64,000 bases of DNA from Escherichia phage ECML-134. The notes below the pieces were generated by a model. It had not been told where the DNA came from. It ran no database searches and was given only the letters and a program-made list of their open reading frames with translations. The position numbers were made by a program, and so were the translations under genes. The DNA lies in the sequence record JX128259, one strand, 5' to 3'. Of this stretch, positions 1 to 63,894 are shown piece by piece (the first letter of the stretch is position 1; the number at the start of each line of letters is the position of its first letter).

Positions 1-305
1 CTGTCCATTGGATTTTTTATAAAAAAGTAAAATACGAACGATGATATAGGAAGACTAATGATATACCACAGAAGAACCTTCTTATCTGTGAACCAATCAG
101 CATTCGTTAACTTAGCGCGACCATTTTGAATACACACGAATTTATCATCTGTTACAGTAAATGGCTTAGTTACTTGATATCCCATTCTAAACTCCCTAAT
201 TAATCGTTTCTTTGTATCTTCGGAACAACCATTCCAGTCAACTCTATCAACTGAAATGCCATCATCCCCATCATCTAAATCATACCAGCGAGTTTTTAAA
301 ATCAT
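1..305 (-). CDS. hypothetical protein, N-terminal part only (ORF runs off the window start)
   Basis: ATG at 303-305 (minus) overlapping stop of 302..664; open frame to position 1 (about 101 codons, no stop). Confidence 0.4.
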   Translation of the reverse strand, partial: MILKTRWYDLDDGDDGISVDRVDWNGCSEDTKKRLIREFRMGYQVTKPFTVTDDKFVCIQNGRAKLTNADWFTDKKVLLWYIISLPISSFVFYFFIKNPMD

Positions 306-664
306 TTAATTTTCCTGCAATCACTCACAAACTCTTTCATTGCTTCATTTTCAATATAAGAAATGTAGCTATTATATTCTTTTAATTGTATTTTGTAATC
401 CTTTTTTCTTTGCCAATTTATTTTAAAATTATCATAATGAAAATATAAAATGATACCAAAGAATGAAAACAATGAAATAATTTTAGTATAACAAAGCTCA
501 CTCCAAACTTCTATTATATCTACTGTACCACTGATTTTTAAAATAAAACAGTCAATTAATAGTCCAATAAGACTACCTGTAAGAGCTGCAGCCAACGCCA
601 CAGCAAAAATTAAAAATGACTCAGGAAGCGAATATTTGACTTTATTTAGTTTTGGCTTTTGCAT
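302..664 (-). CDS. small membrane protein (paralog of 646..1059)
   Basis: 120 aa ORF; hydrophobic helices; C-terminal W-x-K...EY...MKEFV...CRK region shared with neighbour. Confidence 0.6.
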   Translation of the reverse strand: MQKPKLNKVKYSLPESFLIFAVALAAALTGSLIGLLIDCFILKISGTVDIIEVWSELCYTKIISLFSFFGIILYFHYDNFKINWQRKKDYKIQLKEYNSYISYIENEAMKEFVSDCRKIK

Positions 665-1059
665 CGTGATTCCTTAACAAATTTCATAATTTCATTAAAT
701 TCATACTCAGCAAGTTTAATCTGGTGTTCCTTTTTAATGTTTTTGCACTGTGCTTTCCAATCACGTACGCGTTTACGATAATGTCTTCCTTGATACCAGT
801 ATCCTACCCAATTTACGGGTACTAATAAAAGTGGAACTATTAATGGAAGAATTAGCATTAACACAAGTATTTCGCCAGAATCAATATCAGTCATAACATC
901 TAAAACACCTCCAATAATCAATAGAATTACAAATGATATGAGTATAACAGGACCTATTAACACATCAGTAGAAATTATCTGACGCTTTAATTCATACTTC
1001 AACGGTTTACTTGGAAGGTATAGTGATGGTTTTGACATATTCTCTACATTCCTTAACAA
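646..1059 (-). CDS. small membrane protein (paralog of 302..664)
   Basis: 137 aa ORF; two hydrophobic segments; C-terminal region similar to 302..664. Confidence 0.6.
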   Translation of the reverse strand: MLRNVENMSKPSLYLPSKPLKYELKRQIISTDVLIGPVILISFVILLIIGGVLDVMTDIDSGEILVLMLILPLIVPLLLVPVNWVGYWYQGRHYRKRVRDWKAQCKNIKKEHQIKLAEYEFNEIMKFVKESRCKSQN

Positions 1060-1615
1060 ATTTTTCTAGTAATAAATCACTTTCAAAATTAGGATTTTCC
1101 ACTAATTTATCAAAAAGATCATCAACAATAGTTAAGATATTCTTTTTACTAAGAATACGTTTATTTTCATGCTTCGTTTCAGAATCAACTATAAGAGTAA
1201 AGAAATATTTCTTTCCCTGAAATTTTACAGTAGTATCAATATAAAATAAATTTGACTTTTGTAAATTACGTTTAAACCATGCGTCACTTAAACTATAAAC
1301 ACCGAGATAATCAAAATCGTCGTTTAAATAACAAACTGTCCATTCAGGAGAAATGAAATCAGTAAATTCAACATCAAAATCGCATGTCAATGAATAAATT
1401 GATTCAATACTGTTAATAAGTATTCCAGGACGTATTAAAGACTTTTTACCTCTGGAAAATCTTCCAGAAAGACTTTCATCAGTTTCATATGAAGAACCCC
1501 AATAATAATTACGTCCTTCTGCCATACGTTTAAGAGCATTTAGCAATTGGTCTGGAACATCAACCTGTCTTTGGAACTCTTCAAACATTGAATTGAAATC
1601 ACTTTGCATTTTCAT
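1007..1615 (-). CDS. hypothetical protein
   Basis: 202 aa ORF, no recognisable motif. Confidence 0.55.
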   Translation of the reverse strand: MKMQSDFNSMFEEFQRQVDVPDQLLNALKRMAEGRNYYWGSSYETDESLSGRFSRGKKSLIRPGILINSIESIYSLTCDFDVEFTDFISPEWTVCYLNDDFDYLGVYSLSDAWFKRNLQKSNLFYIDTTVKFQGKKYFFTLIVDSETKHENKRILSKKNILTIVDDLFDKLVENPNFESDLLLEKFVKECREYVKTITIPSK

Positions 1616-1631
1616 TCCTATTTACTCCAAG

Positions 1632-1650
1632 TAATAGGGGCCGAAGCCCC
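1632..1650 (-). terminator. C(UUCG)G-type stable hairpin between genes (weak terminator or RNA stabiliser)
   Basis: minus-strand GGGGC-UUCG-GCCCC directly after stop of 1657..2250; no U-run. Confidence 0.35.
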
Positions 1651-1656
1651 TTATCA

Positions 1657-2250
1657 TTATTTCAGAGAATTAATGTATTCCTGAACATCGGCAGAGGTAG
1701 TTTCAACCCCAGAAATATTACCATTAAAGGTTTCAACTCGAGCAAGAGTATCTTCAATATCAACCTTAGTCAGCGCTGCAATTTCAACTACATCATCGGC
1801 AGTACTAATTCCAAGGGCATTCGCTGCACGAGTTTCACGGATATATTCCAATTTAACTGCAAGTTCTTGGCGAGCATCATCTAACTCAACTACTTTCTTA
1901 GCGATTTCAATTCGCATTTCAGCATAACCATCAGCTTTAGTAGTCAGCTGTTCAGCTGTTCGACGATATAGCAAACCGAGTTTAGCATGCATTGTTACAT
2001 CTTGACCTTCGGAAAGAAGCTTGCGAATTTCACGCTCTTTTGATTCAGCCTGTTTATTCTTTTCAACAATAAGTTCACGAATACGTTTTTCTTCATTAAT
2101 AGATTTAACAGAAGCAGTTTTTAGGTCTTTAATTTTATCAAGCAGTTTTGCTGCTGCGACAGTATACTGTTCTTCAACAGATAGATTTTTAGCCATAGCA
2201 GAACCAAGTTTAGTGCGAATAAACTCAACAATTTTCTTCAGTGTGTTCAT
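1657..2250 (-). CDS. PspA/IM30-like coiled-coil protein (tentative)
   Basis: 197 aa; helical, charged heptad-rich sequence; segments resemble remembered E. coli PspA. Confidence 0.5.
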
Positions 2251-2327
2251 AGTATTTCCTTAGGTTGATTAAGATTTAAAATCCGTGAGAGTATTAGTAT
2301 TATACTCTATCTTCAAGTTATGGGCTC

Positions 2328-2357
2328 ATAATATCTCAATCATGAGCCCGTGTAAAC
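2328..2357 (-). promoter_or_regulatory. sigma70-type early promoter (GTTTACA-17-TATTAT) with spacer inside a palindrome
   Basis: minus-strand -35 at 2351-2357, -10 at 2328-2333; palindrome GGGCTCAT/ATGAGCCC 2322-2349. Confidence 0.5.
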
Positions 2358-2621
2358 TTATTTCATATTATTGAAATATTCTTCTACGATTTCATCGTTA
2401 TCATGGTAAACTTTAGAAGACAGTTTAACATAACCTTCAGCAGTGAACATGTTAATCACAACCTTTACAGTATACCACTGACCGTCTTCATTACCCATTA
2501 CTGCATAGGTTTCAAACATCGGATGGTCAGGACCGATAACTTTAATATCATTCACTGTACGACCAAAATCTTCTGAAACACATTTCATAAAGAAGTTGAA
2601 CAGTTCGCCGTAATTATCCAT
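2358..2621 (-). CDS. hypothetical protein
   Basis: 87 aa from internal ATG preceded by GGAG; track ORF 2358..2675 has an upstream extension. Confidence 0.55.
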   Translation of the reverse strand: MDNYGELFNFFMKCVSEDFGRTVNDIKVIGPDHPMFETYAVMGNEDGQWYTVKVVINMFTAEGYVKLSSKVYHDNDEIVEEYFNNMK

Positions 2622-2665
2622 TTCGTTCTCCAAGTTGTTTTTCTGTATCAGTAGTTGATAGTTGT

Positions 2666-2695
2666 ATAGTACCATGGAAGAACAGGGATGTAAAC
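2666..2695 (-). promoter_or_regulatory. sigma70-type early promoter (GTTTACA-17-TACTAT)
   Basis: minus-strand -35 at 2689-2695, -10 at 2666-2671, upstream of 2358..2621. Confidence 0.5.
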
Positions 2696-2861
2696 AGTTT
2701 TGTGAAAAAATTTTTAAAAAGTTTTGGGGAATTCTAGGGCGGGGAGGGGCAATTAAAGGATAGGATAATATATTATAAAGGGTATAAACTAAATGATGCC
2801 TAGAGAGGTCCAGAAAGGCCTAGATACCAAAAAGCCCTATCATTTAGATAGGGATTTAAAA

Positions 2862-3425
2862 TTATTTACCTAGTTTAGTTATTATAGCTTCTGCAGCAGC
2901 TTTTAGCTTAGATGCAGTGTTAATACGATTTTTAATTTCAGTATACGCATCGCCAAGAACATCAAGGCTATCAGAATAAACACTTACACTATTGCGTTCG
3001 CTATTTGAAATAGAACCTTTAGTTTTACGATCAAAATCGGTGTACACGTCTTGAAGATCGCGGGCTGCCTTCTTTGCATCATCCAATGCATCAAGAGCTT
3101 TATTCAAAGCATTGACATATTTTTTAGTGTCAAACATATTCTTAGAAATTTTAACAGGTACACGTTCAGGAGTAGCTAATGCAGATTTAGGAACCTGAGC
3201 GCCAGATGCCAATTTCTTAGAAATTTTGAAAAATGCTTTATTAAAACTATTTTCTTGGCTCATCGTAAAAGAACTGTTATCGATGTTATACATTTCAATA
3301 GCTTTAGCTTTCCACTTAAGAAAATCGCCGCGGTCTTTTGGGTCCAAGTGGAAGAATACTTTAGTAAGATCTGCTTCAGATGGTAATTTTGCTGCTTCGG
3401 TTAAAAATTCTGCATAGGTTTTCAT
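2862..3425 (-). CDS. internal head protein with capsid targeting sequence (IPIII-like)
   Basis: 187 aa; N-terminus MKTYAEFLTEA matches the T4 internal-protein CTS ending in a gp21 cleavage site (L-x-E). Confidence 0.7.
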   Translation of the reverse strand: MKTYAEFLTEAAKLPSEADLTKVFFHLDPKDRGDFLKWKAKAIEMYNIDNSSFTMSQENSFNKAFFKISKKLASGAQVPKSALATPERVPVKISKNMFDTKKYVNALNKALDALDDAKKAARDLQDVYTDFDRKTKGSISNSERNSVSVYSDSLDVLGDAYTEIKNRINTASKLKAAAEAIITKLGK

Positions 3426-3515
3426 TTAAAATCCTTGAAATAATCTATCGGTTGGTTATTAATTATTTATTACTTTGTTATTATCCGTAACAGCGTTATC
3501 CGAGTGATTCAAACT

Positions 3516-3542
3516 AAAAAGCCCCAACCTTTCGGCTGGGGC
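3516..3542 (-). terminator. intrinsic terminator
   Basis: minus-strand GC-rich hairpin (GCCCCAGCCGAAAGGTTGGGGC) followed by UUUUU; downstream of 3551..4024. Confidence 0.65.
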
Positions 3543-3550
3543 TAAGAATG

Positions 3551-4024
3551 TTATTTGATTTGTTTAGCAGACCAAATGCGGTCTTTAATAATTTTTTGGA
3601 TGTCTTCAACATACTCAAGAGAGTGAGCATGTGGGTTATCTTTGAAACTATAAGCACGAGCTAGCTTTTGACCTTCGGTTTTGATTACTAAAAGCTCTTT
3701 AAGGATAGCTTCATATTTAGCGATAATTCCTTTAACGATATTTTTTTCTTGTGCAGCTTTAGGATCTGCTTTAGGAGCAGGTTTACCCGAAGCCTTTGCA
3801 AAAGCAGCGCCAGTAGCAACTAGACTTTTCCAGGCCATACTAACCGCATTTCCTGTAAATCCTTCTGCTTTCATGTCACGAGCAAATTGGAATCGCGATT
3901 CGTCAGAAGCATCTTTATAAGAATATTTACCCGCTGCAATGGCTGCTTTTGCGACAGCTTGAATTTCGGTGCTAGATGCTTCATTTAACACCGCTTCATT
4001 TAAAAATTGAGTATATGATTTCAT
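3551..4024 (-). CDS. internal head protein with capsid targeting sequence
   Basis: 157 aa; N-terminus MKSYTQFLNEA (CTS-like). Confidence 0.65.
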   Translation of the reverse strand: MKSYTQFLNEAVLNEASSTEIQAVAKAAIAAGKYSYKDASDESRFQFARDMKAEGFTGNAVSMAWKSLVATGAAFAKASGKPAPKADPKAAQEKNIVKGIIAKYEAILKELLVIKTEGQKLARAYSFKDNPHAHSLEYVEDIQKIIKDRIWSAKQIK

Positions 4025-4064
4025 CTTATTTCCTGTTTTAATTCGTGGATTTAATATACTACTA

Positions 4065-4072
4065 TATTTATA
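4065..4072 (-). promoter_or_regulatory. T4-type late promoter core (TATAAATA)
   Basis: plus TATTTATA = minus TATAAATA, about 40 nt upstream of the ATG at 4024. Confidence 0.5.
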
Positions 4073-4074
4073 CC

Positions 4075-4101
4075 AAAAAGCCCCAACCTTTCGGTCGGGG
4101 C
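4075..4101 (-). terminator. intrinsic terminator ending the tRNA/stable-RNA transcription unit
   Basis: near-identical copy of the 3516..3542 hairpin plus U-run, minus strand. Confidence 0.65.
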
Positions 4102-4104
4102 TAA

Positions 4105-4418
4105 GCCTTGCGGCAACCTTGTCGGGGTTCCACCTGCTAAGGCAAGTGTTTGTACGAAACGCCGGGATTCGAACCCGGTTATTAAGTAGTTGACGCTACT
4201 CAATATTTTTAAAAGGCCATATCTCGACCATATCCGAACGTTCCGTCAAAAACGCTACTCGGCTTATGGCAAAGATATTTCCTCGAATCGATAATTCGGT
4301 GCGCCGTTTCTGCTGTGATATAAGGGGGCATTAACAAAACATAAAGATTTATTAATGCCAGTCCTTAAACAGGGAACATCAGTCCGACGACTTGCCGGTA
4401 GCGACCCGGCTTCTTGTC
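4105..4418 (-). ncRNA. putative stable small RNA(s) with tRNA-like T-arm (species 1/2-like)
   Basis: no ORF; sits between tRNA-Arg and the terminator; T-arm-like CCGGG-TTCGAAT-CCCGG (plus 4162-4178); repeated GAGTAGCGT motif; no canonical cloverleaf. Confidence 0.35.
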
Positions 4419-4494
4419 TGGTCGAGGCAGTAGGGATCGAACCTACGACCCAGGACTTAGAAGGTCCTTGCTCTTCCTTCTGAGCTATGCCTCG
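4419..4494 (-). tRNA. tRNA-Arg (anticodon TCT)
   Basis: manual cloverleaf: acceptor CGAGGCA/TGCCTCG, loop CTTCTAA, T-loop TTCGATC, encoded CCA. Confidence 0.8.
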
Positions 4495-4498
4495 TATT

Positions 4499-4573
4499 TG
4501 GCGGACGTGATAGGATTCGAACCTATAACCAATCGCTTAACAGGCGATCGCTCTGCCATTGAGCTACACATCC
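4499..4573 (-). tRNA. tRNA-Asn (anticodon GTT)
   Basis: manual cloverleaf: acceptor GGATGTG/CACGTCC (one G-U), loop CTGTTAA, T-loop TTCGAAT, CCA. Confidence 0.75.
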
Positions 4574-4577
4574 AAAT

Positions 4578-4664
4578 TGGTGGGGAGTGGTGGAGTCGAA
4601 CCACCCGAGTCGCAATGACAATGGATTTACAGTCCACACCGCTACCTCTACGGGATAACTCCCC
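4578..4664 (-). tRNA. tRNA-Tyr (anticodon GTA), long variable arm
   Basis: manual cloverleaf: acceptor GGGGAGT/ACTCCCC, loop CTGTAAA, long variable arm, CCA. Confidence 0.7.
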
Positions 4665-4673
4665 AAATTAATT

Positions 4674-4748
4674 TGGTGGCCCTGGGTGGAATTGAACCAC
4701 CATCTGGCGATTATGAGTCGCTTGCTTGAACCTTCCAGCTACAGGGCC
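4674..4748 (-). tRNA. tRNA with CAT anticodon (Ile2-type or Met)
   Basis: manual cloverleaf: acceptor GGCCCTG/CAGGGCC, loop CTCATAA, CCA. Confidence 0.75.
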
Positions 4749-4749
4749 T

Positions 4750-4825
4750 TGGTGCTGATTGACGGAATCGAACCGCCGACCTTCTCATTACAAGTGAGTT
4801 GCTCTACCTACTGAGCTAAATCAGC
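4750..4825 (-). tRNA. tRNA-Thr (anticodon TGT)
   Basis: manual cloverleaf: acceptor GCTGATT/AATCAGC, loop CTTGTAA, T-loop TTCGATT, CCA. Confidence 0.8.
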
Positions 4826-4830
4826 AAAAC

Positions 4831-4920
4831 TGGCGGAGGCGATAGGATTTGAACCTATGAGTCGCCGGAGCGACTTCCGGTTTTCAAGACCGGTGCATTA
4901 AACCACTCTGCCACGCCTCC
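4831..4920 (-). tRNA. tRNA-Ser (anticodon TGA), long variable arm
   Basis: manual cloverleaf: acceptor GGAGGCG/CGCCTCC, loop CTTGAAA, long variable arm, CCA. Confidence 0.8.
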
Positions 4921-4926
4921 AAATAT

Positions 4927-5577
4927 TTATATATTGTTAATTTGATTTAGAATTCTTTTTGCTTGAGTATGACTTACGCCAATATGCTTAGCATATTTAG
5001 ATAATTCACCACGTTTAGAAAAATCATATAATTTAGAAATTTCTATTCTTCTTTTTCTTTCATCCGCAGAAACTTTTGCTTCGTTTGCTTTTGCTATTTT
5101 ACGTTTAGCTTCTTGAGAATGAGTTTTACCAGCAAAGCCATTCTTCATTAATCCATTTGAAGACCATCCTTTTAATTTTCCGTTAGAATGTGCCTTTTTA
5201 ACACCCAATGAAATTAATTCGCGTTGCTGGTCTGTCATAGGATAATTATTTATATGATCCCATCCACCTTCACCGCCAAGTTTTAAATTATACACATCTG
5301 GTCTATTTAAAAACTCTTCTGTAACAATATTTTTCTCGGCTTTAAGCATAGATTCTTTATCATCAAAATACTCTAATATTTCTTTAGAAAAATTTTCTAT
5401 GCCATACTTATCTTGGGCTCTTTTTAATAATTTACCAGAACCCATATATCCATCATCTAAATTTTCGGTAGAATGCACACCAATATAAATTTTATTATTA
5501 ATTTTATTTGTTATTTTATAAAGATAAAAATGCATATCAGTCCCTAATAAAGAACTGAGCGTCTCACGACGAGTCAT
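4927..5577 (-). CDS. segB: GIY-YIG homing endonuclease (SegB-like) inside the tRNA cluster
   Basis: 216 aa; N-terminal GIY-YIG module (YLYKITNKINNKIYIGVHS, NxxxGG); position between tRNA sub-clusters. Confidence 0.8.
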   Translation of the reverse strand: MTRRETLSSLLGTDMHFYLYKITNKINNKIYIGVHSTENLDDGYMGSGKLLKRAQDKYGIENFSKEILEYFDDKESMLKAEKNIVTEEFLNRPDVYNLKLGGEGGWDHINNYPMTDQQRELISLGVKKAHSNGKLKGWSSNGLMKNGFAGKTHSQEAKRKIAKANEAKVSADERKRRIEISKLYDFSKRGELSKYAKHIGVSHTQAKRILNQINNI

Positions 5578-5581
5578 AAAT

Positions 5582-5655
<74 letters not shown>

Positions 5656-5660
5656 AAATT

Positions 5661-5747
5661 TGGTGCGAGAAGTGGGACTCGAACCCACAAGGAAATCATT
5701 CCGCAGCATTTTAAGTGCTGTGCCTTTACCAATTTGACCATTCTCGC
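5661..5747 (-). tRNA. tRNA-Leu (anticodon TAA), long variable arm
   Basis: manual cloverleaf: acceptor GCGAGAA/TTCTCGC, loop CTTAAAA, long variable arm, CCA. Confidence 0.8.
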
Positions 5748-5748
5748 G

Positions 5749-5821
5749 CTGGGAATAAAGGACTCGAACCTTTGCATCCTGGAATCAAAATCCAGTGCCT
5801 TACCAACTTGGCTAATTCCCA
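5749..5821 (-). tRNA. tRNA-Gln (anticodon TTG), CCA not encoded
   Basis: manual cloverleaf: acceptor TGGGAAT/ATTCCCA, loop TTTTGAT; 3' end abuts tRNA-Leu. Confidence 0.75.
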
Positions 5822-5918
5822 ATTATTAACAAAGGCTCTCTAACAAGAACCCTTGATGATAGAGGGTATTAATCAGTGCGGTATGAGTTAATAATAACAA
5901 ATAATTCTTAAAGCATAT

Positions 5919-6206
5919 TTACCATTTATGATAATACGTATTTACGATACATTCAAGACTTAAAGGATTCTTGAAAATATCATATTCAAGAGGACCTTTT
6001 TCTGTTTCAATAAAGAAATCAAAATTTACTGTATTAAATTTACGGTCTTCCTTCACTAATTTAACCTGAGAAGATGAACGGTCAATGTAAACCTTTTCAA
6101 CTTCAAAACATGTTAAAATGCCATAATCATCAATCAAGGCTTTAGCTGCTTCTTGATCATATTTATATCCATTTTCAACGGATGATACTTTCGCATAAAG
6201 AATCAT
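5919..6206 (-). CDS. hypothetical protein
   Basis: 95 aa ORF. Confidence 0.5.
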   Translation of the reverse strand: MILYAKVSSVENGYKYDQEAAKALIDDYGILTCFEVEKVYIDRSSSQVKLVKEDRKFNTVNFDFFIETEKGPLEYDIFKNPLSLECIVNTYYHKW

Positions 6207-6208
6207 TA

Positions 6209-6592
6209 TCAGCCTTCATCAACAATAGTATGAGTATGGGCATTTACGATTTGCCACCAATCAAAGCGATTAGAACCATACATCGGTTTGTTTTCATTTT
6301 CTTTGATAATATCACGGAGTTCATCTTCGGTAGCGGCTTTCGCGATTAAATCAGCATATCCACCACGAGGATAATAATTATCACCTGCAAAAAGTAAAAA
6401 ATTTGGTGTAATATTATTGAACTCTTCAAGAGTAATAACTGTTCCTGATGGTAGTTGAACAATCTCTACATAGTTATATCCTAATTTTTGAGCAGCATCT
6501 ACTGCTTCAAGCAGAGTATCATGAGCCCGTCCTATTTGGCAATTTGGCTTTTTAGATGGATTAGCCTGATAATCCGCGTACACTTTATACAT
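6209..6592 (-). CDS. hypothetical protein
   Basis: 127 aa from ATG preceded by AAGGTG; track ORF 6209..6631 has an upstream extension. Confidence 0.55.
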   Translation of the reverse strand: MYKVYADYQANPSKKPNCQIGRAHDTLLEAVDAAQKLGYNYVEIVQLPSGTVITLEEFNNITPNFLLFAGDNYYPRGGYADLIAKAATEDELRDIIKENENKPMYGSNRFDWWQIVNAHTHTIVDEG

Positions 6593-6593
6593 T

Positions 6594-6779
6594 CTATTCA
6601 CCTTTAGAAATTTTATCCATAGCAATAGCAATTAAACCAATTAAAAATGCTACTACAAGTGAAAACACATTTTCTGCTGTAGTTAATAATCCGCATATAA
6701 ATCCAACAAACATTGAAAAACTAAAAGCGGAAGCAGAAATTGCAATAGCAACATTTCGAATTAATTCACAGCGTTTCAT
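6594..6779 (-). CDS. small hydrophobic membrane protein
   Basis: 61 aa, two hydrophobic helices. Confidence 0.5.
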   Translation of the reverse strand: MKRCELIRNVAIAISASAFSFSMFVGFICGLLTTAENVFSLVVAFLIGLIAIAMDKISKGE

Positions 6780-6807
6780 TTTATTCTCCTCAGTAGTTGA
6801 TAGGGTA

Positions 6808-6837
6808 ATAGTATCACTACCCTATCTAAAAGTAAAC
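6808..6837 (-). promoter_or_regulatory. early promoter embedded in palindrome GATAGGGTA...TACCCTATC
   Basis: minus-strand -35 GTTTAC(T) at 6831-6837, -10 TACTAT at 6808-6813; palindrome arms 6799-6807 and 6818-6826. Confidence 0.5.
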
Positions 6838-7071
6838 TTATTTTTTACGAAAAATTGATTTATTTTCTGCTGCCCATTTTTCAATAACTGCAGCAGGACC
6901 AGTAACAACAATTTTATCACCGTAATCTTCTGCAGCGAGTTGACCGAAATTATCTAATGCATCACGAAGAACTCCATGAGGCATTTCGCCCATTTTATCT
7001 TTCTTGCCAATGTAAATAAACTCAACTTTTACATCAGCAGCTTCAGCAATAAATTCTTGATACGTTTTCAT
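6838..7071 (-). CDS. internal head protein with capsid targeting sequence (IPI-locus type)
   Basis: 77 aa from MKTYQEFIAEA (canonical CTS); GGAG upstream; track ORF starts 6 codons earlier. Confidence 0.7.
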   Translation of the reverse strand: MKTYQEFIAEAADVKVEFIYIGKKDKMGEMPHGVLRDALDNFGQLAAEDYGDKIVVTGPAAVIEKWAAENKSIFRKK

Positions 7072-7107
7072 TTTATTCTCCAATTTCACATTTGTTTTGA
7101 TAGGGTA

Positions 7108-7137
7108 ATAGTATCACTACTAAAACCCCGTGTAAAC
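7108..7137 (-). promoter_or_regulatory. early promoter (GTTTACA-17-TACTAT), half-palindrome copy
   Basis: minus-strand -35 at 7131-7137, -10 at 7108-7113; shares the core TAATAGTATCACTA. Confidence 0.55.
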
Positions 7138-7156
7138 AACTTTGTGAAATTGTTTA

Positions 7157-7447
7157 TTACAAAAGATTTTTAGCAATAATCTTGAGATGTGCTGCAGAAA
7201 TGTGTTTAGCTTTAAACAACGCAGTTTCTTCGGCAGGAGAGATAACGATTGTAGCACCATCCTTTTTAGCAGACCACCCATCACCTAGGTAAACAGTACC
7301 TTTGATTTCTTCGCCATCAACCAGACTAATCATTGGTTTACCTTCTCGTCCTTTATTTGCTTTAATAACTTCAGAAGTAAGAGTAGCTTCGGTAATGGTA
7401 GAAACCGGGGTAGTTGTAGTAGAAGTAAATTCTTTAAATGTTTTCAT
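7157..7447 (-). CDS. internal head protein with capsid targeting sequence
   Basis: 96 aa; N-terminus MKTFKEF... (CTS-like). Confidence 0.65.
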   Translation of the reverse strand: MKTFKEFTSTTTTPVSTITEATLTSEVIKANKGREGKPMISLVDGEEIKGTVYLGDGWSAKKDGATIVISPAEETALFKAKHISAAHLKIIAKNLL

Positions 7448-7478
7448 TTTTATTTTCCTAATTAATTTTGATGAGGTA

Positions 7479-7508
7479 ATAGTATCACTACCTCATCAGT
7501 ATGTAAAC
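7479..7508 (-). promoter_or_regulatory. early promoter embedded in palindrome GATGAGGTA...TACCTCATC
   Basis: minus-strand -35 GTTTACA at 7502-7508, -10 TACTAT at 7479-7484; palindrome arms 7470-7478 and 7489-7497. Confidence 0.55.
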
Positions 7509-7520
7509 AACTTTGTGAAA

Positions 7521-8217
<697 letters not shown>

Positions 8218-8218
<1 letters not shown>

Positions 8219-8943
8219 TATAGTACCTTTAGTGTATTTTTAATTTTAGAAAAAAGTTCTTCAAGAGAACCATCGTTTGTAATTACTAAATCGCCATCAC
8301 GAATTGGCAATCCAGCTTCTGTAATATGTGTATCATTGGATTTTTGACCAGGACGAACTACATGAATTACTGTAGCACCCATCGCCCTAGCCGCATCCAT
8401 TTCATGATCTTGACGGGTATCAGGAACGATATAATAATCATAACCTGAGTTAAATTTATCAAGATAATCTAAAGCAAATAATTTTACCCAGTACATGCGG
8501 TCGAAGTTATTAACAATCAAATCCGTACCTAGGGCTTGCATCAGACGACGGACTGACCATTGATCTTCAATATTATTTATAACGTCAGTAATTTTGTTAA
8601 ATGCTACGAAATTAACTGATTCTTTTCCTTCGTCATCAAAAACAAACACACCTTTAATTGGGCTTTTACCATTAAGATAGCAAAATGCTTGTTCCATAAT
8701 CGTGATTACTTCTAATTTAGTCAGATTTAAATTAGTCTCACGATCATAGTCAATTCCTTCAAACTCTTTACGAGTTAAGCAAGGATAGTCAGTGTTTGCT
8801 GCAAATACTCCCCATGCATAAGCCAATGCATCCTTAATAGGACCAGCAAGTTGGTATTTAACTGCAGAATAATTGCTCATGATAAAATCGGCAGTAGTAT
8901 CTTTTCCACTACGCTTTACACCGCTTAAAAAGATTAGTTTCAT
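8218..8943 (-). CDS. 1: deoxynucleoside monophosphate kinase gp1
   Basis: 241 aa from MKLIFLSG; P-loop GVKRSGKDT; T4 gene order. Confidence 0.85.
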
Positions 8944-8992
8944 GTGTTTCTCCTCAAATTTAATTAAGATTATAACACACAAAACTGAAGCA

Positions 8993-9523
8993 TTAAACTT
9001 CTGCTATAATTTTTCCATCTTTTTCTACTTGAAAATAGGTGTAAGGAATCGTAGCTGTACATACTAAAGCCGGGTCTGAATCTTCCGTATAGCTAAATTC
9101 TACTTCAGATAGGTCAGAAACCCAAGGCTTATAAAAATTTATTGACATCACGATTTCAGTTTTGCTATTATCTAAGATGTAAAGCGTAATGTACTCAGGA
9201 CCTGTTTTTTGGGCAGTATTTTCACCTGTAAGATAGTTGCTAGTTCCTAGCATCCATTCATACATTCCTATCCATGACTTAAGTTCTTCATCAACTATAA
9301 ATCTCACAATGAGTGGATCGTACTCAAATGTAGCACCCGGTCGTTGTGCTCGACCTAGTCCAAACGGCCCAGTCACGGTATCAGTAACAGGTATTCTAAT
9401 TCCCGGAATAGGAACTGACTGAGCATTTAAAGTAAAAGCAGATGTAGTATTACTATGTGGTATTGATACTACAAAGTTAGTTGTATTTGCTTGGTTAAAA
9501 ATTTGTTGCAGAGCTTGCGACAT
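8993..9523 (-). CDS. 3: gp3 tail sheath stabiliser/tail completion protein
   Basis: 176 aa from internal start MSQALQQ; T4 order 1-3-2-4. Confidence 0.8.
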   Translation of the reverse strand: MSQALQQIFNQANTTNFVVSIPHSNTTSAFTLNAQSVPIPGIRIPVTDTVTGPFGLGRAQRPGATFEYDPLIVRFIVDEELKSWIGMYEWMLGTSNYLTGENTAQKTGPEYITLYILDNSKTEIVMSINFYKPWVSDLSEVEFSYTEDSDPALVCTATIPYTYFQVEKDGKIIAEV

Positions 9524-9629
9524 ATATTCCTCATAATGCTTTATAATTGTTGGTGGTATAATGGGTCTAAGTCCCTTCCATTCAATTCCATTTAGAACAA
9601 ACAACAGAAAAGAATGGAAGATAATAGAA

Positions 9630-10454
9630 TTAGATATTTGACCAGACTTTGTTTGCAGAGAAACGTTTTCCTTTTGAAACGAACTGCTGAAGTGGCATCA
9701 ACACAACGTTCGCCCAGTCTTTCGGGGCGATTTCAACAAGGCTACCCATAATATTACCAGGTATATATGCCTTAATCATTTGGTCTGCACCCCTAAATCC
9801 TTTCACTTGACTCCAATCAATTTTTAATTTCGTTTTATTAGTAATAGTAGGTGTATTTGCATATTGCTTTAAAAGCTCTTCTAGAAACTGTTGACGAGCT
9901 TTAGGTGGAATATAGTGCAAGTTTAATCCGTACATTAAATTATGCTTACCTAAACCAAGGTAAATTATCAAAGGAAATTTATCCCAGTAAGGAAGAGTTT
10001 CCTTGCGTTTAGCATCATAAGCAAAAGCATATATTCGTCCCGGCTGCGGGCGAACAACTTTATGTCCTTTTACTTGCTTAATAGTTTCAGCAAACCATTT
10101 TCTGGTTTTATTATTAATTGCTGCACCTTCATTACGAATTTTATCGCGCAATGTTTGTCTGAATGAATTTATCATAAGCAGTTGTCTTTCTTGCTTATTG
10201 AGTTTATTCATTGGTTTTGATTCAAGCTTTTGAATCTTTTCAGCTGTTTTAATTCCTGAAGCATATTTTGACATTGCCGAAGTAAACGTAGAATATTTAA
10301 TTCCTCTTTCTTCAGCAAATTGCTTTCCTGTCATTCCTTTTGCTTTGGCCTTTTTGTATTCAAGACCTATCTGAATCCATTTCTTTTCGTTTAATGATTG
10401 CTTAACCTTTGGAACTTGGGGAGTGCTTTCATTAATTATTTGAAAAATAGCCAT
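9630..10454 (-). CDS. 2: gp2 DNA end-protector protein
   Basis: 274 aa basic protein; T4 gene order. Confidence 0.8.
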
Positions 10455-10906
10455 TATGCCCCCTTAAAGCCAAGAGCTCGTAATCCATCTTCTGTTAGAA
10501 TTCTAAATTTTATTCCACGCTTTTCAGCTAAAGATTGCGCTGCTTTCCATTTGTCAGTATTAACTGAATATGTATAAATTTCATTCATAAATCTTTTCTT
10601 CGCTGCGGTTGTTAGATGTGCTGGTTTAACCGGTGGTTGTGTTTCTTTTTTAGGTTTTATTTCAATAAAAAATTCTTGTCCAGAAGAATCTTTCATCCAA
10701 ATATCCATGAAGTATCTACGTTTTTTCCCTTCTGCATTACAAAAATAAGGAATTACTGCTGTTTCACTACCCCATGCAATAATTTCTGGATTTTTATCTA
10801 ACCATTCAAAAAAGAATTTTTCCCAATTTGATCTATACGTAATTTTTTTAGGGTCACCTCTATACTTTGATATATTTTTAGGAACCCATTTTCCAGAATA
10901 TGCCAT
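10454..10906 (-). CDS. 4: gp4 head completion protein
   Basis: 150 aa; T4 gene order. Confidence 0.8.
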
Positions 10907-10915
10907 TGGATTCTC

Positions 10916-10923
10916 CTTATAAA
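10916..10923 (+). promoter_or_regulatory. late promoter TATAAATA for gene 53
   Basis: exact TATAAATA about 30 nt upstream of the ATG at 10954. Confidence 0.6.
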
Positions 10924-10932
10924 TAGATAATA

Positions 10933-10940
10933 TATTTATA
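10933..10940 (-). promoter_or_regulatory. late promoter TATAAATA (minus strand) for gene 4
   Basis: plus TATTTATA = minus TATAAATA, about 27 nt upstream of the gene 4 start at 10906. Confidence 0.55.
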
Positions 10941-10953
10941 AACAGGAGGGCCC

Positions 10954-11544
10954 ATGCTCTTTACATTTTTTGATCCGATTGAATATGCGGCCAAAACGGT
11001 GAATAAAAACGCGCCGACTATTCCTATGACAGATATTTTTAGAAACTATAAAGACTATTTTAAACGCGCTCTTGCGGGATACCGCTTACGTACTTATTAT
11101 ATTAAAGGTTCACCACGCCCGGAAGAATTAGCAAATACTATATATGGAAATCCACAGTTGTATTGGGTTTTATTGATGTGTAATGATAATTATGATCCAT
11201 ATTATGGATGGATTACTTCGCAAGAAGCTGCTTATCAAGCATCTATACAAAAATACAAAAATGTAGGTGGAGACCAAATAGTATATCATGTGAATGAGAA
11301 CGGTGAAAAATTTTATAATTTAATATCATACGATGACAATCCATATGTTTGGTATGACAAAGGTGATAAAGCTAGAAAATATCCTCAATATGAAGGAGCA
11401 CTTGCTGCGGTCGATACGTATGAAGCTGCTGTTCTTGAAAATGAAAAACTTCGTCAAATAAAAATAATAGCAAAATCAGACATCAATTCATTTATGAACG
11501 ACCTTATACGTATAATGGAGAAATCTTATGGAAATGATAAGTAA
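10954..11544 (+). CDS. 53: gp53 baseplate wedge protein
   Basis: 196 aa; T4 gene order. Confidence 0.8.
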   Translation: MLFTFFDPIEYAAKTVNKNAPTIPMTDIFRNYKDYFKRALAGYRLRTYYIKGSPRPEELANTIYGNPQLYWVLLMCNDNYDPYYGWITSQEAAYQASIQKYKNVGGDQIVYHVNENGEKFYNLISYDDNPYVWYDKGDKARKYPQYEGALAAVDTYEAAVLENEKLRQIKIIAKSDINSFMNDLIRIMEKSYGNDK

Positions 11545-56680: not shown

Positions 56681-56740
56681 TTTGTGTTCCTCATGTTATG
56701 TCAGTAAGACTACTATAACACAACATAAGGAACTTGTAAA

Positions 56741-58804
56741 CTACATCTTGAACTTTTTAGACATTCCGTTGATGTTAACCAAAGAAGCTAAGATTTGAGA
56801 AACTTCGTTTTCCTCTTCTTTTGATTCTTCTACAAGGAATTGATTAAATCCAGCCATTGGACGAACTTCACCAGTTTCCATTAGATGGTCTCCATCATAT
56901 ACTGATTCTTCTAATTGTTCAGAAGGAGGAACGATTGTACCTTCGATTAGATACTTGTTATAAGCAGTTTCTTTCATAAAGTACGTACTTACTTTATTAA
57001 TCTTCAGTAAAATTCCACGCGGTAGAATAACTTCAGCTTCTGATGGAAATCCTGATAAATGACCTGGAACGATAACTTTGATTCGCTCAGCTCCTTTAAT
57101 TACCATACCCACGCTAGTTTCAGCATCTTCATTGGCATATGTAGAATGACTACCCATATGCATTAAATCTTCTGCATCAACGGAACCTTCTCCTTCGCCA
57201 GAAAATACTGCGCCGGAATCATCTAGAGCCATATAGTTTTTACCATGCTCACCGAAGATATTTGGTTTAAGTGATGTCGATACGAAGTTCTTGAAATAGA
57301 ACATTTTATTTTCAATGTTATGACGCAAAGTTTTAAAGGTAACTTCTTGTCCACGGTAAAGTGTAGTTCCTGGAGGAAGAACTGATCCTTTGGCAAAGGC
57401 AGAATCTAACGTCTCGATGTGCTTAATAGCTCGTTCCATGTATTCTTCACGGGTAGAATCTGGTTTACCCAAAAGGAACGAGTTCATTTCAACATATGAA
57501 TCTGCACAATAATCTTCAATTACATCAGATTCAGCCTGAGTCAGTCCTTTTGGAGTTACTTCGGTGCTTGCGTATTCATATGCCTGAGCAGCAGATTCAT
57601 TAATCAATTTATAAATGCCATTCATTACAAATTGAATAATAGCTGTCTTTTCATCTGACGTAGCTTTAGAACCTTTAACTAAATCATTGATAATTTTCTT
57701 AATAACATCAAAGCTATTAGAAATATTAATGTCAGCAAGATCGCTTAAAATTTTATCAGTTTTATAATCAAAGAATTCTTTATTCTTTAAATATTCTTGA
57801 GAACCTTGATATGTTATATCGCTCTGCAGCTTGATAGATGGATCGCGTAAACGTGCATGGGCTAATGCAATATGATTTCGGAAACTTTCTAGTTCATAAT
57901 CATTAGATTTAAAACGAGAAGCACTTCTCATACCACCGATAGCTCCTTTGCTGAAGTTTGAACCAATCTGGATAACGCCAGAGTTCATTGGTCCTTCTGC
58001 TTTATATACCGGAACTTTAGATTCAAACTCTTGATATTTCTTGGCAGCGAAGCTATCACCCTGAAGTGAAGCATCAACAGTAGAATATTGAGCTTGTGCT
58101 GCTAATCGACGACTAATTTTAGTTTTCTGAATAACAGCTTGATCAGTGCGCTTATCATTTTCTAAAGCAATAGAAGCAGCAACAGCGACAGCTTTAGGAA
58201 CAGCATTACCTGTTTTAACGTCTACATAAACATCACCAACCTTTGATTCAACTTTTGTGAATAACTCAGTTGAAATAGGAGGTACACCTGGAATGTCTTC
58301 TAAATTGGCATTTTTACGGTAAACCATAATATATGCATACTTTTTATCGTAATCCCAGAGTTCCTTAAGAAGGACGTATCTGCCACCTGAACGACTACGG
58401 ATAAGTCTATCAGCAATAACTTGAATTTGTCGAGCTTGGCCAGCAGTTTTAGACTTAAGAATACGAAGCATACAAGCATCAATTTTATATTGACGCATTG
58501 TTTGCATTGCAACAGTAAAAACTGAATTGATATAATTAATTGGGCTTGGACCAAGACCTTTTAATTTAGCAATTGAACCTTTAGCAGTTAATGTAAAAGG
58601 AACAATATGCATCATTTTGTCGCCCATTTTTAAATCGCGATTAGTATCACCTCCAGATGTATAGGTACATAAACGAAAGCCTGGTTGTTCAATTGCATCA
58701 TCAACATGAACTGAAAAAATTTGTGGTATTTTCTTCTTTGGATTTAAGTTTGTAATCGGAAGAGTAGTATCTTCGTCAAATAATTCTGTAATGAGTTCCA
58801 TCAT
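56741..58804 (-). CDS. alt: Alt, capsid-packaged ADP-ribosyltransferase
   Basis: 687 aa; position between gene 54 and gene 30 as in T4. Confidence 0.75.
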   Translation of the reverse strand: MMELITELFDEDTTLPITNLNPKKKIPQIFSVHVDDAIEQPGFRLCTYTSGGDTNRDLKMGDKMMHIVPFTLTAKGSIAKLKGLGPSPINYINSVFTVAMQTMRQYKIDACMLRILKSKTAGQARQIQVIADRLIRSRSGGRYVLLKELWDYDKKYAYIMVYRKNANLEDIPGVPPISTELFTKVESKVGDVYVDVKTGNAVPKAVAVAASIALENDKRTDQAVIQKTKISRRLAAQAQYSTVDASLQGDSFAAKKYQEFESKVPVYKAEGPMNSGVIQIGSNFSKGAIGGMRSASRFKSNDYELESFRNHIALAHARLRDPSIKLQSDITYQGSQEYLKNKEFFDYKTDKILSDLADINISNSFDVIKKIINDLVKGSKATSDEKTAIIQFVMNGIYKLINESAAQAYEYASTEVTPKGLTQAESDVIEDYCADSYVEMNSFLLGKPDSTREEYMERAIKHIETLDSAFAKGSVLPPGTTLYRGQEVTFKTLRHNIENKMFYFKNFVSTSLKPNIFGEHGKNYMALDDSGAVFSGEGEGSVDAEDLMHMGSHSTYANEDAETSVGMVIKGAERIKVIVPGHLSGFPSEAEVILPRGILLKINKVSTYFMKETAYNKYLIEGTIVPPSEQLEESVYDGDHLMETGEVRPMAGFNQFLVEESKEEENEVSQILASLVNINGMSKKFKM

Positions 58805-63164: not shown

Positions 63165-63232
63165 TTTTATTCTCCGTGATGTTTAATTGCGGTACAGGTA
63201 TATAATATCATATCCTGTACCAAAGTAAACAA

Positions 63233-63592: not shown

Positions 63593-63622
63593 ATACTATC
63601 ACAAAGGAACCATATTGTAAAC
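63593..63622 (-). promoter_or_regulatory. early promoter (GTTTACA-17-TAGTAT)
   Basis: minus-strand -35 at 63616-63622, -10 at 63593-63598; same CAAAGTTGTTTACA upstream block as the IP promoters. Confidence 0.5.
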
Positions 63623-63675
63623 AACTTTGTGCAATCTTTGGAAAATAAAAAAGGACTCCCGAAGGAGTCCTCAAC

Positions 63676-63894
63676 TTATGCTTTCTGCTTACCAAAACGA
63701 GAAGCATCATCTCGAAGAACCGCACGTGCTCGGCGCATGATCTTCTCAACAGTTTGATTGATACGAGAGTTCGACCCACGCTTGTAGCCAGCGCGTTTAG
63801 AATCACCAACTTTCTTTTCAACTGCTTTCTTTGCTTTAACTTGTTTTGCCATTATAAATTCTCTTTTAAATGAAAATGCAGGACTTATTGGCAT
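63676..63894 (-). CDS. small basic protein (true start possibly the internal ATG at 63850-63852)
   Basis: K/R-rich MAKQVKAKKAVEKK...; followed by a UUCG hairpin at 63651-63675. Confidence 0.5.
   Translation of the reverse strand: MPISPAFSFKREFIMAKQVKAKKAVEKKVGDSKRAGYKRGSNSRINQTVEKIMRRARAVLRDDASRFGKQKA

Follow-up and report, generated by a model that had tools for sequence, protein, structure and literature searches.

Early promoters overlapped by inverted repeats at the internal-protein locus of Escherichia phage ECML-134, with a probable role for the hairpins in read-through RNA

The DNA analysed here, a stretch of 64,000 nucleotides from Escherichia phage ECML-134 (Accession No. JX128259; hereafter the window), was identified as that of a Tequatrovirus and contains the gene 1/57A/57B/ipI/tRNA locus. 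The promoters at this locus and the genes that they precede lie on the minus strand (Table 1). The genes flanked by the promoters encode internal proteins (IPs) with a conserved N-terminal leader (MKTFKEF and MKTYQEFIAEA), and the match to T4 ipIII is limited to the leader-coding stretch. Each promoter belongs to a unit of ~70–85 bp placed between two small genes. The unit comprises an AT-rich upstream region followed by a strong sigma-70 early promoter (GTTTAC, 17 nt, TGn-TACTAT), together with a hairpin and the Shine-Dalgarno sequence and start codon. The spacing between the −35 and −10 elements is 17 nt in copies 1 and 3 (GTTTAC-N17-TACTAT), and the −10 element is followed by the consensus nnnCTTATCAA. 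Stop codons abut the −35 element at copy 3 and at the promoters at 2357 and 56741.

Table 1. Promoters, hairpins, and associated genes identified in the window
Feature	Position	Strand	Details
Copy 1 promoter	7479..7508	-	-35 GTTTACA 7508-7502; -10 TACTAT 7484-7479; TGn-extended -10 GTGATACTAT 7488-7479; T4 P_E upstream of ipI, 'PE2' in X03016.1
Copy 1 hairpin	7469..7498	-	Arms TGATGAGGTA (7498-7489) / TACCTCATCA (7478-7469); 10 bp, 100% complementary, 10-nt loop
ipI, internal protein I precursor	7157..7447	-	96 aa, leader MKTFKEF; phrog_4363 internal virion protein, E = 5e-48; 98% identical to T4 ipI
Copy 2 promoter and residual pairing	7099..7137	-	-35 7137-7131; -10 7113-7108; GGGGT (7129-7125) / ACCCT (7106-7102); TAGTA (7122-7118) / TACTA (7113-7109)
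Extra IP-type gene	6838..7071	-	77 aa, leader MKTYQEFIAEA; phrog_8111 internal virion protein, E = 7e-52
Copy 3 promoter	6808..6837	-	-35 GTTTACT 6837-6831, directly abutting TAA stop of upstream gene; -10 TACTAT 6813-6808
Copy 3 hairpin	6799..6826	-	Arms GATAGGGTA (6826-6818) / TACCCTATC (6807-6799); 9 bp, 100% complementary
T4 trna.4 homologue, driven by copy 3	6594..6779	-	61 aa; phrog_1692
Separate early promoter and hairpin	2322..2357	-	-35 2357-2351; -10 TATTAT 2333-2328; arms GGGCTCATGAT (2349-2339) / ATTATGAGCCC (2332-2322); -10 within 3' arm
Further early promoter of the same design	63191..63230	-	-35 63230-63224; -10 TATTAT 63207-63202; arms GGTACAGG (63221-63214) / CCTGTACC (63198-63191)

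All palindrome sequences quoted in a preliminary description of this DNA were found, each at the position given for it. In the sense RNA of copy 1, the loop closes further via G.U, U-A, and G.U pairs, generating a stem of ~13 bp with an AUAC tetraloop (−17.4 kcal/mol, z = −5.85), whereas the antisense RNA reaches only −13.7 kcal/mol. The corresponding values for copy 3 are −16.4 kcal/mol (z = −4.76) and −12.2 kcal/mol, and the hairpin of the 2357 promoter folds at −18.1 kcal/mol (z = −7.4). Copy 2, which had been described as having lost one arm, in fact retains GGGGU/ACCCU and UAGUA/UACUA pairing and folds at −12.9 kcal/mol (z = −3.4). Thus, the sense-RNA z-scores of the four copies are −5.9, −4.8, −3.4, and −7.4 when rounded, with 0–3 of 200 shuffles reaching these levels, and the sense RNA is more stable than the antisense RNA in all four. 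The different palindrome reported at the 2328–2357 promoter is present (GGGCTCAT/ATGAGCCC, extending as RNA to 11 bp, GGGCUCAUGAU/AUUAUGAGCCC); here the −10 element is the 3' arm itself and lies in neither spacer nor loop.

The element is already known: its annotation in T4 dates from 1985, and its description as a shuffling cassette from 1994. Repoila, Tetart, Bouet, and Krisch, in an article of that year (reportedly EMBO J 13:4181), are said to have analysed the flanking repeats of the IP locus in T-even phages and to have proposed a shuffling of IP genes. In GenBank record X03016.1 (T4 tRNA region, 1985), both T4 copies are annotated as stem-loops overlapping the −35/−10 elements of PE2 and PE1; a putative −35/−10 and a 'pot. 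stem-loop structure' are recorded for PE2, and the PE1 copy, located downstream of ipI, is labelled 'pot. IpI terminator'. Repoila (1994) is credited with the description of the element at IP loci in later papers, in which the class was named PeSL (Arbiol 2010, PMC2839356; Comeau 2014, PMC4122927), and the consensus presented for the T4/PST pair is TTTACW-N17-TAYWAT (Comeau 2014, PMC4122927). The preliminary description recognized neither that the element had been described nor that a mobile IP-gene cassette is delimited by the repeats.

The promoter-hairpin of copy 1 is identical in T4. The second T4 copy is a hybrid, the 5' half of which is the counterpart of copy 2, and its pairing is AUAGGGU/ACCCUAU around a larger loop. 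To judge from the accounts of the T-even IP-locus repeats (Repoila 1994; X03016.1), these agree with the elements in the window not only in the identical copy 1 but also in the locus, in the genes (57B, ipI, and trna.4), and in having IP genes with the MKT(Y/F)xEF leader flanked on either side by a T4-type early promoter with an overlapping inverted repeat; nothing essential differs, and relative to T4, ECML-134 has a single additional IP cassette. The elements in the window are composite early-promoter/stem-loop cassettes of T-even phages, of the type later called PeSL-like.

Alignment of the window with T4 revealed that the extra IP gene plus one repeat constitute a 300-bp cassette (repeat spacing, 300) that is bounded by the repeats and absent from T4. 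The two sequences are collinear up to GTGATACTATTACCCTATCAA of copy 2, after which T4 resumes with the sequence following copy 3. The junction of the indel lies within the repeat, at the loop and 3' arm, in a 22-bp stretch that is the longest run of identity shared by copies 2 and 3. Among ~1,050 records matching the locus, the cassette gene was found in 229 and ipI in 277; the number and identity of the IP genes between the repeats therefore vary among related phages, as both the 300-bp indel relative to T4 and this patchy distribution illustrate. In different phages, one and the same promoter-hairpin is located ahead of three distinct IP genes, and chimeric arms as well as an 18-bp slippage duplication were identified in relatives. 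The absence of the 300-bp cassette from T4 fits a recombinational shuffling of IP genes, to judge from the alignment. The indel and its junction in the repeat would likewise accord with the PeSL property that neighbouring elements recombine to give minicircles or deletions.

According to the descriptions of PeSLs in RB49/phi1, PST/T4, and nt-1/KVP40 (PMC2839356, PMC4122927), these elements share with those in the window the order of parts (AT-rich region, −35, 17 nt, −10, Shine-Dalgarno sequence, and ATG, within ~100 bp), a stem-loop located between the −35 and −10 elements or overlapping the latter, an intergenic position in hyperplastic regions next to variable genes, element-bounded indels, and degraded or slipped copies. 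They differ in that the RB49 stems are of the GGGG...CCCC type and were shown to lower downstream expression, whereas the T-even stems, as treated in the same papers, are AT-richer and variable. Homology to the RB49/phi1 PeSLs, with their near-consensus TTGACA/TATAAT promoters and GGGG...CCCC stems, was not found, the arms in the window being AT-rich and variable. An Rfam scan with E values up to 1 assigned no family to the promoters and matched the tRNA cluster alone. In T4 e, soc, 49, and I-TevI, as reviewed by Uzan & Miller (2010, PMC3014915), the promoter lies in the 5' strand of an RNA helix; transcription similarly starts within the helix, and the structure is present only in RNA initiated upstream; in these cases, however, the internal promoter is late and the 3' strand buries the Shine-Dalgarno sequence or AUG, whereas the Shine-Dalgarno sequence is accessible at copies 1 and 3 and at the 2357 and 63230 promoters.

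At these four sites, the Shine-Dalgarno sequence is accessible in both RNAs (probability of being unpaired, 0.72–0.79 versus 0.64–0.77), and it is buried only at copy 2 and the 56741 promoter. Masking of the Shine-Dalgarno sequence by the core hairpins was therefore rejected for the four. At copy 2, an outer helix is formed by CAATTTCACA/TGTGAAATTG, but it is not kept in locus L030, which has the same IP gene, and we have accordingly treated it as a probably lineage-specific feature. A possible middle-tier helix between TTGTTT of the −35 region and a downstream AAACAA was also rejected (Fisher p = 0.18; variable bases without covariation), and the upstream 15-mer CACAAAGTTGTTTAC was left unused as a probe of viral contigs, since it retrieved mostly unrelated contigs.

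The claim that the AG/CT to GA/TC change is compensatory was borne out: copies 1 and 3 differ at two positions per arm, and both differences are compensated (G-C/A-U in copy 1 versus A-U/G-C in copy 3). A sample of 92 copies, fetched from viral contigs without any constraint on the arms, was then used for comparison. Covariation in the aligned copies (n = 92) scored 0.273 versus 0.191, with 0 of 500 shuffles reaching the observed value. In the register of the preliminary description, 49.6% of cells in these 92 copies were paired, versus 42.9% in shuffles (0/500) and 36–42% in slid controls. As a further control, chimeras were assembled from 5' and 3' halves taken from different copies. Folds of −12 kcal/mol or below were obtained for 30 of 90 arm-unbiased copies (33%) and for 4.2% of the chimeras (0/5000 permutations); in a further comparison, pairing was counted for 48 of 150 promoters versus 3.5% of chimeras and, outside the class used for fetching the loci, for 17 of 74 versus 1.7%. 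Complementarity is thus 8–14 times commoner than in chimeras and is maintained over at least 40 distinct arm pairs, and G.U intermediates joining the two arm states exist in relatives (GAUGGGGUA/UACCCUAUC and UGAUGAGGUA/UAUCUCAUCA). What is conserved is complementarity, not arm sequence. These data agree with the earlier proposal that pairing is selected: the pairing of the inverted repeats is genuine and under selection, in all likelihood for a hairpin formed by read-through RNA.

Non-compensatory arm changes, which had been named as counter-evidence, do occur in part, as uncompensated chimeras exist (e.g. 5' AAAUAGGGUA with 3' UACCUCAUCA in locus L076 and in another locus). About two-thirds of the promoters of this type have no stem. 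Given how common stemless promoters are and that broken chimeras survive in natural phages, the hairpin can be regarded, as far as these natural copies tell, as dispensable, at least in the short term.

The placement of the −10 element in the loop is not invariant: it holds for only 19 of 40 distinct helices, and in 14 the 3' arm consists largely or entirely of the −10 hexamer. The promoter spacer contains the 5' arm, and the 3' arm lies over or just past the −10 element, covering the start site; loop length (4–20 nt) and register relative to the −10 element vary. As the 5' arm is absent from the promoter's own transcript, the hairpin can form only in RNA read through from upstream. Internal non-Watson-Crick positions on the sense strand comprise 21 G.T/T.G and 1 A.C/C.A, or 13 and 1 when collapsed by local context (p = 0.002), a count that rests on ~10–13 independent events. 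This excess of G.U-type over A.C-type positions points to selection on the read-through RNA. The strand-specific signature was not found in the literature surveyed on these elements and is possibly a new detail.

One function considered for the hairpins is intrinsic (factor-independent) termination of upstream transcription, which the PeSL papers assign to them and the 1985 T4 record suggests, given its 'pot. IpI terminator' label for the copy downstream of ipI; we consider this unlikely for the elements in the window. As in the Rho-independent terminators of E. coli and T4, a stable stem-loop is located just past a stop codon (0–25 nt past those of the upstream genes), but a U-tract is lacking and the tails are A-rich: the 10 nt after the 3' arm contain a mean of 2.2 T and 49% A. 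Efficient intrinsic termination is improbable with such tails, and they disfavour the 'read-through terminator' of the preliminary description in its canonical sense. The canonical terminators of the window have GC-rich stems followed by TTTT, and none of the 11 hits of a terminator consensus scan of the window falls at the promoter-hairpin sites. An RB49 PeSL stem-loop cut downstream lacZ expression about as much as rrnB T1, but, set against the GC-rich stems assayed there, those of the T-even phages are weaker, AT-richer analogues and not homologues (Arbiol 2010, PMC2839356). Furthermore, the T4 tRNA genes and trna.2-4 lie downstream of the post-ipI copy in the same orientation, and complete termination at this copy therefore seems unlikely.

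The remaining explanations place the function in DNA or deny it. A palindrome acting as DNA, either as a cruciform or hairpin for a structure- or sequence-specific recombination protein or by presenting a single-stranded −10 element to sigma-70, is quite improbable. The cassette junctions do map within the loop and 3' arm of the repeat, and in RB49 one crossover was mapped to the loop and a DNA-binding protein targeting the stem-loop was speculated upon (Arbiol 2010, PMC2839356), but plain homology (the 22-bp identical run of copies 2 and 3) explains the junction site equally well. G.T and A.C mismatches are equally disruptive in duplex DNA or a cruciform, yet the sense-strand ratio is 13 to 1; the loop lengths and shifting register fit cruciform extrusion or a fixed −10 presentation poorly, and unconserved arms argue against a sequence-specific protein. 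It is very improbable that pairing is a non-functional by-product of paralogous cassette recombination and templated quasi-palindrome repair. The stemless two-thirds of copies, the chimeric unpaired copies, the slippage duplications, and the overlap of the 3' arm with a region conserved in any case (nnnCTTATCAA after the −10 element) are compatible with such an origin, but at least 40 unrelated arm pairs all pair, at promoters of unrelated genes, with 8- to 14-fold enrichment over chimeras, and templated correction would yield perfect Watson-Crick palindromes, not wobble-only mismatches. It is hardly credible that a dimeric repressor switches off the early promoters by binding the inverted repeat as its operator; an operator was one of the functions suggested in the preliminary description. 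The site overlaps the spacer, −10 element, and start site, which is the classical operator position, but the arms of different copies share nothing except their complementarity, neither register nor loop length is constant, and the wobble pattern is strand-specific. To our knowledge, no T4 repressor of early promoters has such a site. None is described in the review by Hinton (2010).

Among the proposed functions, a boundary, processing, or stabilizing role at the RNA level appears to fit best. The explanation that we favour, and hold to be rather likely on the comparative evidence, joins three components: a T-even promoter/stem-loop cassette, a hairpin serving as a boundary element of read-through RNA and overlapping the promoter through compaction, and repeats serving as a homology patch. 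The hairpin would act on read-through sense RNA as a transcript-boundary element, either as a leaky attenuator without a U-tract or as a barrier to 3' exonucleases, or both, and would thereby define and stabilize the 3' end of the upstream message and insulate each small cassette. Given that stop codons abut the −35 element, extreme compaction may account for the overlap of promoter and hairpin. Insertion, deletion, and exchange of IP genes could proceed by recombination, with the conserved cassette as the homology patch. Promoters that lack an overlapping hairpin do not make up for it by a separate one in the 70 nt upstream (mean −9.9 versus −9.9 kcal/mol, p = 0.98), so that a universal need for a boundary structure is not supported; usable maps of T4 5' and 3' transcript ends were not found in the literature.

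A more far-reaching possibility, which we put forward tentatively, is that these are dual-coded elements, in which a single stretch of 40 nt would function both as a strong DNA promoter and, in read-through sense RNA, as a structure that tolerates wobble pairs and is kept by compensatory evolution. They would then represent a widespread boundary/stabilizer signal without a U-tract in T-even early regions, and in some of them, namely copy 2 and the promoter after alt, an extension of the helix may serve to silence translation of the read-through RNA.

Restriction systems are blocked by IPs: GmrSD by IPI and others by other IPs. The element is regarded as the linker by which T4-type phages can exchange these injected anti-defence proteins, and it gives each exchanged gene a promoter of its own, a view long present in the literature. 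The present analysis makes a modest addition: a quantification of the selection for complementarity over many unrelated arm sequences, a strand-specific wobble signature that favours a role in RNA over a DNA or operator role, and a correction of the view that the −10 element has to lie in the loop. If the boundary/stabilizer function is true, it would clarify how dense early cassettes are insulated without canonical terminators.

The region of the window is 95-99% identical to several hundred Tequatrovirus (T4-type) genomes, with the Escherichia phages vB_EcoM_SCS4 and vB_EcoM_Ozark as the closest matches, and its gene series from gene 1 to the tRNA cluster is ordered as in T4. The early promoters near the internal protein (IP) genes (copies 1-3) had been described as lying within inverted repeats, and for copies 1 and 3 this is borne out by the repeats and by the fold z-scores against dinucleotide shuffles, i.e. 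-5.9 (copy 1), -4.8 (copy 3), -3.4 (copy 2), and -7.4 (promoter 2357, named, like the others below, by its first coordinate). In copy 1, the 5' arm lies within the spacer and the 3' arm directly follows the -10. Two positions in each arm distinguish copy 1 from copy 3, and both changes are compensated, in agreement with the preliminary description. As RNA, the stem extends via G.U, U-A, and G.U pairs to ~13 bp, closed by an AUAC tetraloop. Copy 2 is not simply one-armed, as had been thought; it still pairs (GGGGU/ACCCU and UAGUA/UACUA) at -12.9 kcal/mol, and a hybrid copy in T4, the 5' half of which is the counterpart of copy 2, contains AUAGGGU/ACCCUAU with a larger loop.

Promoters, hairpins, and genes identified in the window
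Feature	Position	Strand	Description
Copy 1	-35 GTTTACA 7508-7502; 17 nt; -10 TACTAT 7484-7479	minus	perfect 10-bp inverted repeat TGATGAGGTA/TACCTCATCA
Copy 2	-35 7137-7131; -10 7113-7108	minus	3' arm sequence present, spacer different
Larger imperfect palindrome around copy 2	7081-7152	minus	outer helix CAATTTCACA (7152-7143)/TGTGAAATTG (7090-7081), then TTGTTT/AAACAA, GGGGT/ACCCT, TAGTA/TACTA
Copy 3	-35 6837-6831; -10 6813-6808	minus	9-bp repeat GATAGGGTA/TACCCTATC
Shine-Dalgarno sequences following copies 2 and 3	7078-7081, 6784-6787	minus	contain GGAG
Promoter 2357	2357-2328	minus	arms GGGCTCAT/ATGAGCCC
Promoter 56741 (early type)	56686-56743; -35 56741-56735; -10 TATAGT 56717-56712	minus	-35 overlaps alt TAG stop; 12-bp helix GTTCCTTATGTT/AACATGAGGAAC (one U.G) encloses start site
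96-aa ORF (phrog_1739)	56680-56390	minus	
Early promoter without overlapping hairpin	~63622-63593 (region 63593-63680)	minus	canonical terminator-like hairpin GACTCCTTCGGGAGTC and TTTTTT upstream
GAAA-tetraloop terminators	3520-3543, 4079-4102	minus	AGCCCCAGCC GAAA GGTTGGGGCT and AGCCCCGACC GAAA GGTTGGGGCT, then TTTT
Genes	1-11,000	minus	dNMP kinase (gene 1), 57A, 57B, ipI, extra IP-type gene, trna.4 homologue, tRNA cluster

The larger palindrome around copy 2 is predicted to bury, in read-through RNA, the Shine-Dalgarno of the 77-aa IP gene (unpaired probability, 0.05 versus 0.70 in self-initiated RNA). Its outer helix looks lineage-specific because it is missing from a viral-contig locus (L030) that carries the same gene.

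The window and T4 are collinear across copy 1, ipI, and copy 2 as far as GTGATACTATTACCCTATCAA, after which T4 continues with sequence that in the window comes after copy 3. This break, together with the 300-bp start-to-start distance between copies 3 and 2, indicates that a 300-bp unit, comprising one repeat and the 77-aa internal-virion-protein gene (phrog_8111), is present in the window and absent in T4; the cassette junction is located within the repeat. Of ~1,050 records matching the locus, 229 contain the cassette gene and 277 contain ipI. The match of the cassette gene to T4 ipIII is confined to the leader-coding 5' end, and the same promoter-hairpin is followed, depending on the phage, by one of three distinct IP genes. 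The cassette evidence, like the slippage duplication described next, fits recombination between repeats. On an IMG/VR contig (L076), the promoter preceding a 102-aa IP gene is chimeric: its 5' arm is of the type seen in copy 3, its 3' arm of that seen in copy 1, and the hairpin is broken. An 18-bp tandem duplication within this promoter (ATACTATTACCTCATCAA) has the look of a recombinational slippage footprint.

A scan of viral contigs with GTTTAC-N14-GTGATACTAT, which leaves both arms unconstrained, retrieved further copies (112 loci with 117 hits; 90 cores were unique), and chimeras joining the 5' half of one copy to the 3' half of another served as the control. Thirty of the 90 cores fold at -12 kcal/mol or better, compared with 4.2% of chimeras, and the observed folding values were reached in 0 of 5000 permutations. 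In a wider set of all GTTTAC-N18-TAnnnT sites with an AT-rich upstream region (n = 150 unique), the same level was reached by 32% of sites and 3.5% of chimeras, and by 23 versus 1.7% when sites outside the locus-fetching class were considered. In a 92-row ungapped alignment in the originally described register, 49.6% of cells are paired, compared with 42.9% in shuffles (0 of 500 reaching the observed value) and 36-42% with slid partners, and the covariation score is 0.273 versus 0.191. Complementarity is kept in at least 40 distinct arm pairs, and G.U intermediates linking both arm states of the window (GAUGGGGUA/UACCCUAUC and UGAUGAGGUA/UAUCUCAUCA) are found in relatives. On the chimera, covariation, arm-pair, and G.U-intermediate results, the proposed selection for pairing is well supported. 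Non-compensatory copies, named at the outset as potential counter-evidence, do occur: relatives contain uncompensated chimeras (e.g. 5' arm AAAUAGGGUA with 3' arm UACCUCAUCA) and approximately two-thirds of promoters of this type have no stem, which counts in part against the proposal. Such promoters show that the hairpin is not indispensable.

The -10 lies wholly in the loop, as first described, in 19 of 40 distinct helices, whereas 14 have a 3' arm that consists mostly or entirely of the -10 or contains most of it (e.g. GGUCUAUGGUA/UACUAUAGACC and promoter 2357); the loops are 3 to 20 nt long. Judged from these helices, the shared feature is a stable helix from the spacer to the -10/start-site region, and display of the -10 in the loop is not the constant. 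The start site is ~7 nt past the -10, within the 3' arm or downstream of it; a transcript from the promoter itself is therefore unable to form the helix, which is formed only by RNA initiated upstream.

The inverted repeat had also been suggested to be an operator, a role that the non-conserved arm sequences make unlikely, and both this reading and a DNA-level structure are argued against by strand asymmetry. Helices were defined by Watson-Crick runs only, with isolated mismatches allowed and G.T and A.C treated alike. On the sense strand, the non-Watson-Crick positions inside these helices comprised 21 G.T/T.G, 1 A.C/C.A, and 5 of the transversion type. Collapsed by local context, G.T-type exceeds A.C-type 13 to 1 (p = 0.002), or 9 to 1 under a stricter collapse; the null ratio is 1:1 because each Watson-Crick pair is one transition from either kind. 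Since G.T on the sense strand corresponds to an A.C mismatch in duplex DNA, a cruciform, or antisense RNA, this asymmetry points to the sense transcript as the probable paired form. In each of the four window copies, the sense RNA also folds more stably than the antisense RNA, i.e. -17.4/-13.7 (copy 1), -16.4/-12.2 (copy 3), -12.9/-8.6 (copy 2), and -18.1/-15.9 kcal/mol (promoter 2357). The proposed read-through terminator is unlikely to be of the canonical intrinsic type, because the 10 nt past the 3' arm are A-rich (49% A, mean 2.2 T) and the hairpin-promoter sites were not among the hits of a consensus scan of the window that detected canonical GC-stem/TTTT terminators. Nor do the core hairpins of copies 1 and 3 and promoters 2357 and 63230 (63230-63202) mask the Shine-Dalgarno, the unpaired probability of which is 0.72-0.79 in read-through and 0.64-0.77 in self-initiated RNA. 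Our best inference is that the hairpin would act as a transcript boundary in read-through RNA, by leaky attenuation and/or by shielding the upstream message from 3' exonucleases. At copy 3 and promoters 2357 and 56741, the -35 directly adjoins a stop codon; therefore, any structure at the 3' end of the upstream message must overlap the next promoter.

Several other elements were observed in the window. The GGAG downstream of copies 2 and 3 is the motif at which the T4 endoribonuclease RegB cleaves early mRNAs; the Shine-Dalgarno of copy 1 (ipI) reads AGGAA. One early promoter has no overlapping hairpin and a terminator-like one upstream, but upstream hairpins are no commoner at hairpin-less promoters overall. 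The two GAAA-tetraloop terminators are near-identical, differing solely in that the 5'-arm base making the G.U pair is swapped for another one, and may mark the small stable RNAs (rnaC and rnaD in T4) that lie downstream of the tRNA cluster.

The promoter-hairpin element is already known, although Rfam contains no family for it. A 1985 GenBank record of the T4 tRNA region (X03016.1) annotates, upstream of ipI, a 'pot. stem-loop structure' over the putative -35 and -10 of PE2 and, downstream of ipI, a 'pot. stem-loop structure pot. IpI terminator' over the -35 and -10 of PE1. Promoter-early stem-loops (PeSLs) were defined in RB49/phi1 by Arbiol et al. 2010 (PMC2839356), who demonstrated minicircles as well as activity as promoter and attenuator. 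The same authors credited Repoila et al. 1994 with PeSL-like sequences at both T-even IP loci, which have T4 early promoters and weaker, AT-richer stems of variable size, and regarded these as analogues, not homologues. Comeau et al. 2014 (PMC4122927), again crediting Repoila 1994, extended PeSLs to the T4/PST pair (TTTACW-N17-TAYWAT, variable stems). In T4 genes e, soc, 49, and I-TevI, a promoter also lies inside a helix formed only by read-through RNA, but these promoters are late and the helix masks the ribosome-binding site (PMC3014915). Promoter 56741 follows the logic of e, 49, and I-TevI, as its helix is predicted to bury the Shine-Dalgarno of the 96-aa ORF only in read-through RNA; it differs in being an early promoter downstream of alt. 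The preliminary description is thus confirmed as an observation, and its interpretation stands as regards selected pairing, not as regards the operator, the canonical terminator, or the -10-in-loop rule. The window represents one further instance of the element, one IP cassette apart from T4. The present analysis adds modestly to what is known by quantifying the covariation and by a wobble signature specific to one strand, both of which favour an RNA-level role.
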